A stretch of DNA of 64,000 nucleotides from an uncultured Planctomycetia bacterium (GTDB lineage: Bacteria > Omnitrophota > Gorgyraeia > 2-01-FULL-45-10): positions 21,077 through 85,076 of the forward strand of contig CAYGRZ010000003.1 in the NCBI GenBank assembly GCA_964352425.1, read 5' to 3'; not shown here. Below, a report on this DNA, generated by a model with database tools, continues.

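Follow-up and report, generated by a model that had tools for sequence, protein, structure and literature searches.

The UDP-HexNAc dehydrogenase gene is interrupted by an intein, which sits precisely at the junction preceding the enzyme's catalytic Cys and has a GC content of 0.41 vs 0.54 for the exteins. A near-ortholog of the dehydrogenase (protein P0022) was found at loci L049 and L050, from two other samples:

Window 39371-40834, (-): LAGLIDADG intein, 488 aa, within the HexNAc dehydrogenase gene 38879-41647
L049 10001-11971 and L050 2432-4402: HexNAc dehydrogenase near-ortholog P0022

P0022 carries only a mini-intein of 222 aa, at the same site as the 488-aa element; where the endonuclease would be, it has just a few residues (…ATPRHCEEREARRGNLKKRDCFGPSGLAMT…), which look like a translated small palindromic repeat. 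The intein is absent from approximately 15 related genomes. Three allele types, full, mini and empty, are therefore found side by side in this lineage. The intein had gone unmentioned in the original prediction.

The short-read contigs of both runs stop at or near window positions 16575-16582 and 38668-41095. The former break falls within an intact GT-C open reading frame; the latter spans the intein, with ends that differ from the intein boundaries. Strain variation or coverage are candidate causes of the latter break.

In a second Omnitrophota genome (L046; GCA_020057115.1, JAGVGJ010000018.1), the middle section of the locus is nearly syntenic with that of the window, in the order GFO-LbH-DegT-Wzx-GT4-MT-DegT-x-rSAM-SDR-WecB-SDR-x-GT2-CE4-MT-GT-C. 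Genes for the deacetylase-fold, GNAT and carbamoyltransferase proteins are missing there, which shows gain and loss at the level of cassettes. Between one of the GT-C genes and the Wzy gene of the window lie three small genes:

10835-12417, (-): a 249-aa anchored protein without family, a doubtful 102-aa open reading frame and a DUF4330 protein

Upstream of the glycan genes, the following features were observed:

46352-48547, (-): LptD-like outer-membrane protein, 731 aa, also in L005-L040
48544-51380: two tandem membrane GGDEF proteins, preceding the LptD-like gene
53386-54063, (-): small corrinoid-binding protein, 225 aa (B12-binding_2 and B12-binding)
54051-56078, (-): asparagine synthase (AsnB-type amidotransferase)
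59066-60571, (+): 501-aa open reading frame, antisense to dnaK (59072-61042)

In Omnitrophota genomes phylum-wide (the window and L005-L040), the ugd/rml block has the LptD-like gene as its direct upstream neighbour. The 501-aa frame matches Pfam NAD-GH (PF10712) at 1.4e-81. It corresponds to the known antisense-to-Hsp70 reading frame and is almost certainly no real gene here.

The asparagine synthase gene may have been acquired; its GC3 is 0.63, against approximately 0.8 in its neighbours, and at the equivalent position it is missing in the closest relative, L005, and present in the related loci L006 and L007. Its predicted role could be uronic acid amidation. The corrinoid-binding gene is kept in relatives, with the DUF1015/asnB genes on one side of it and the accD-like gene on the other.
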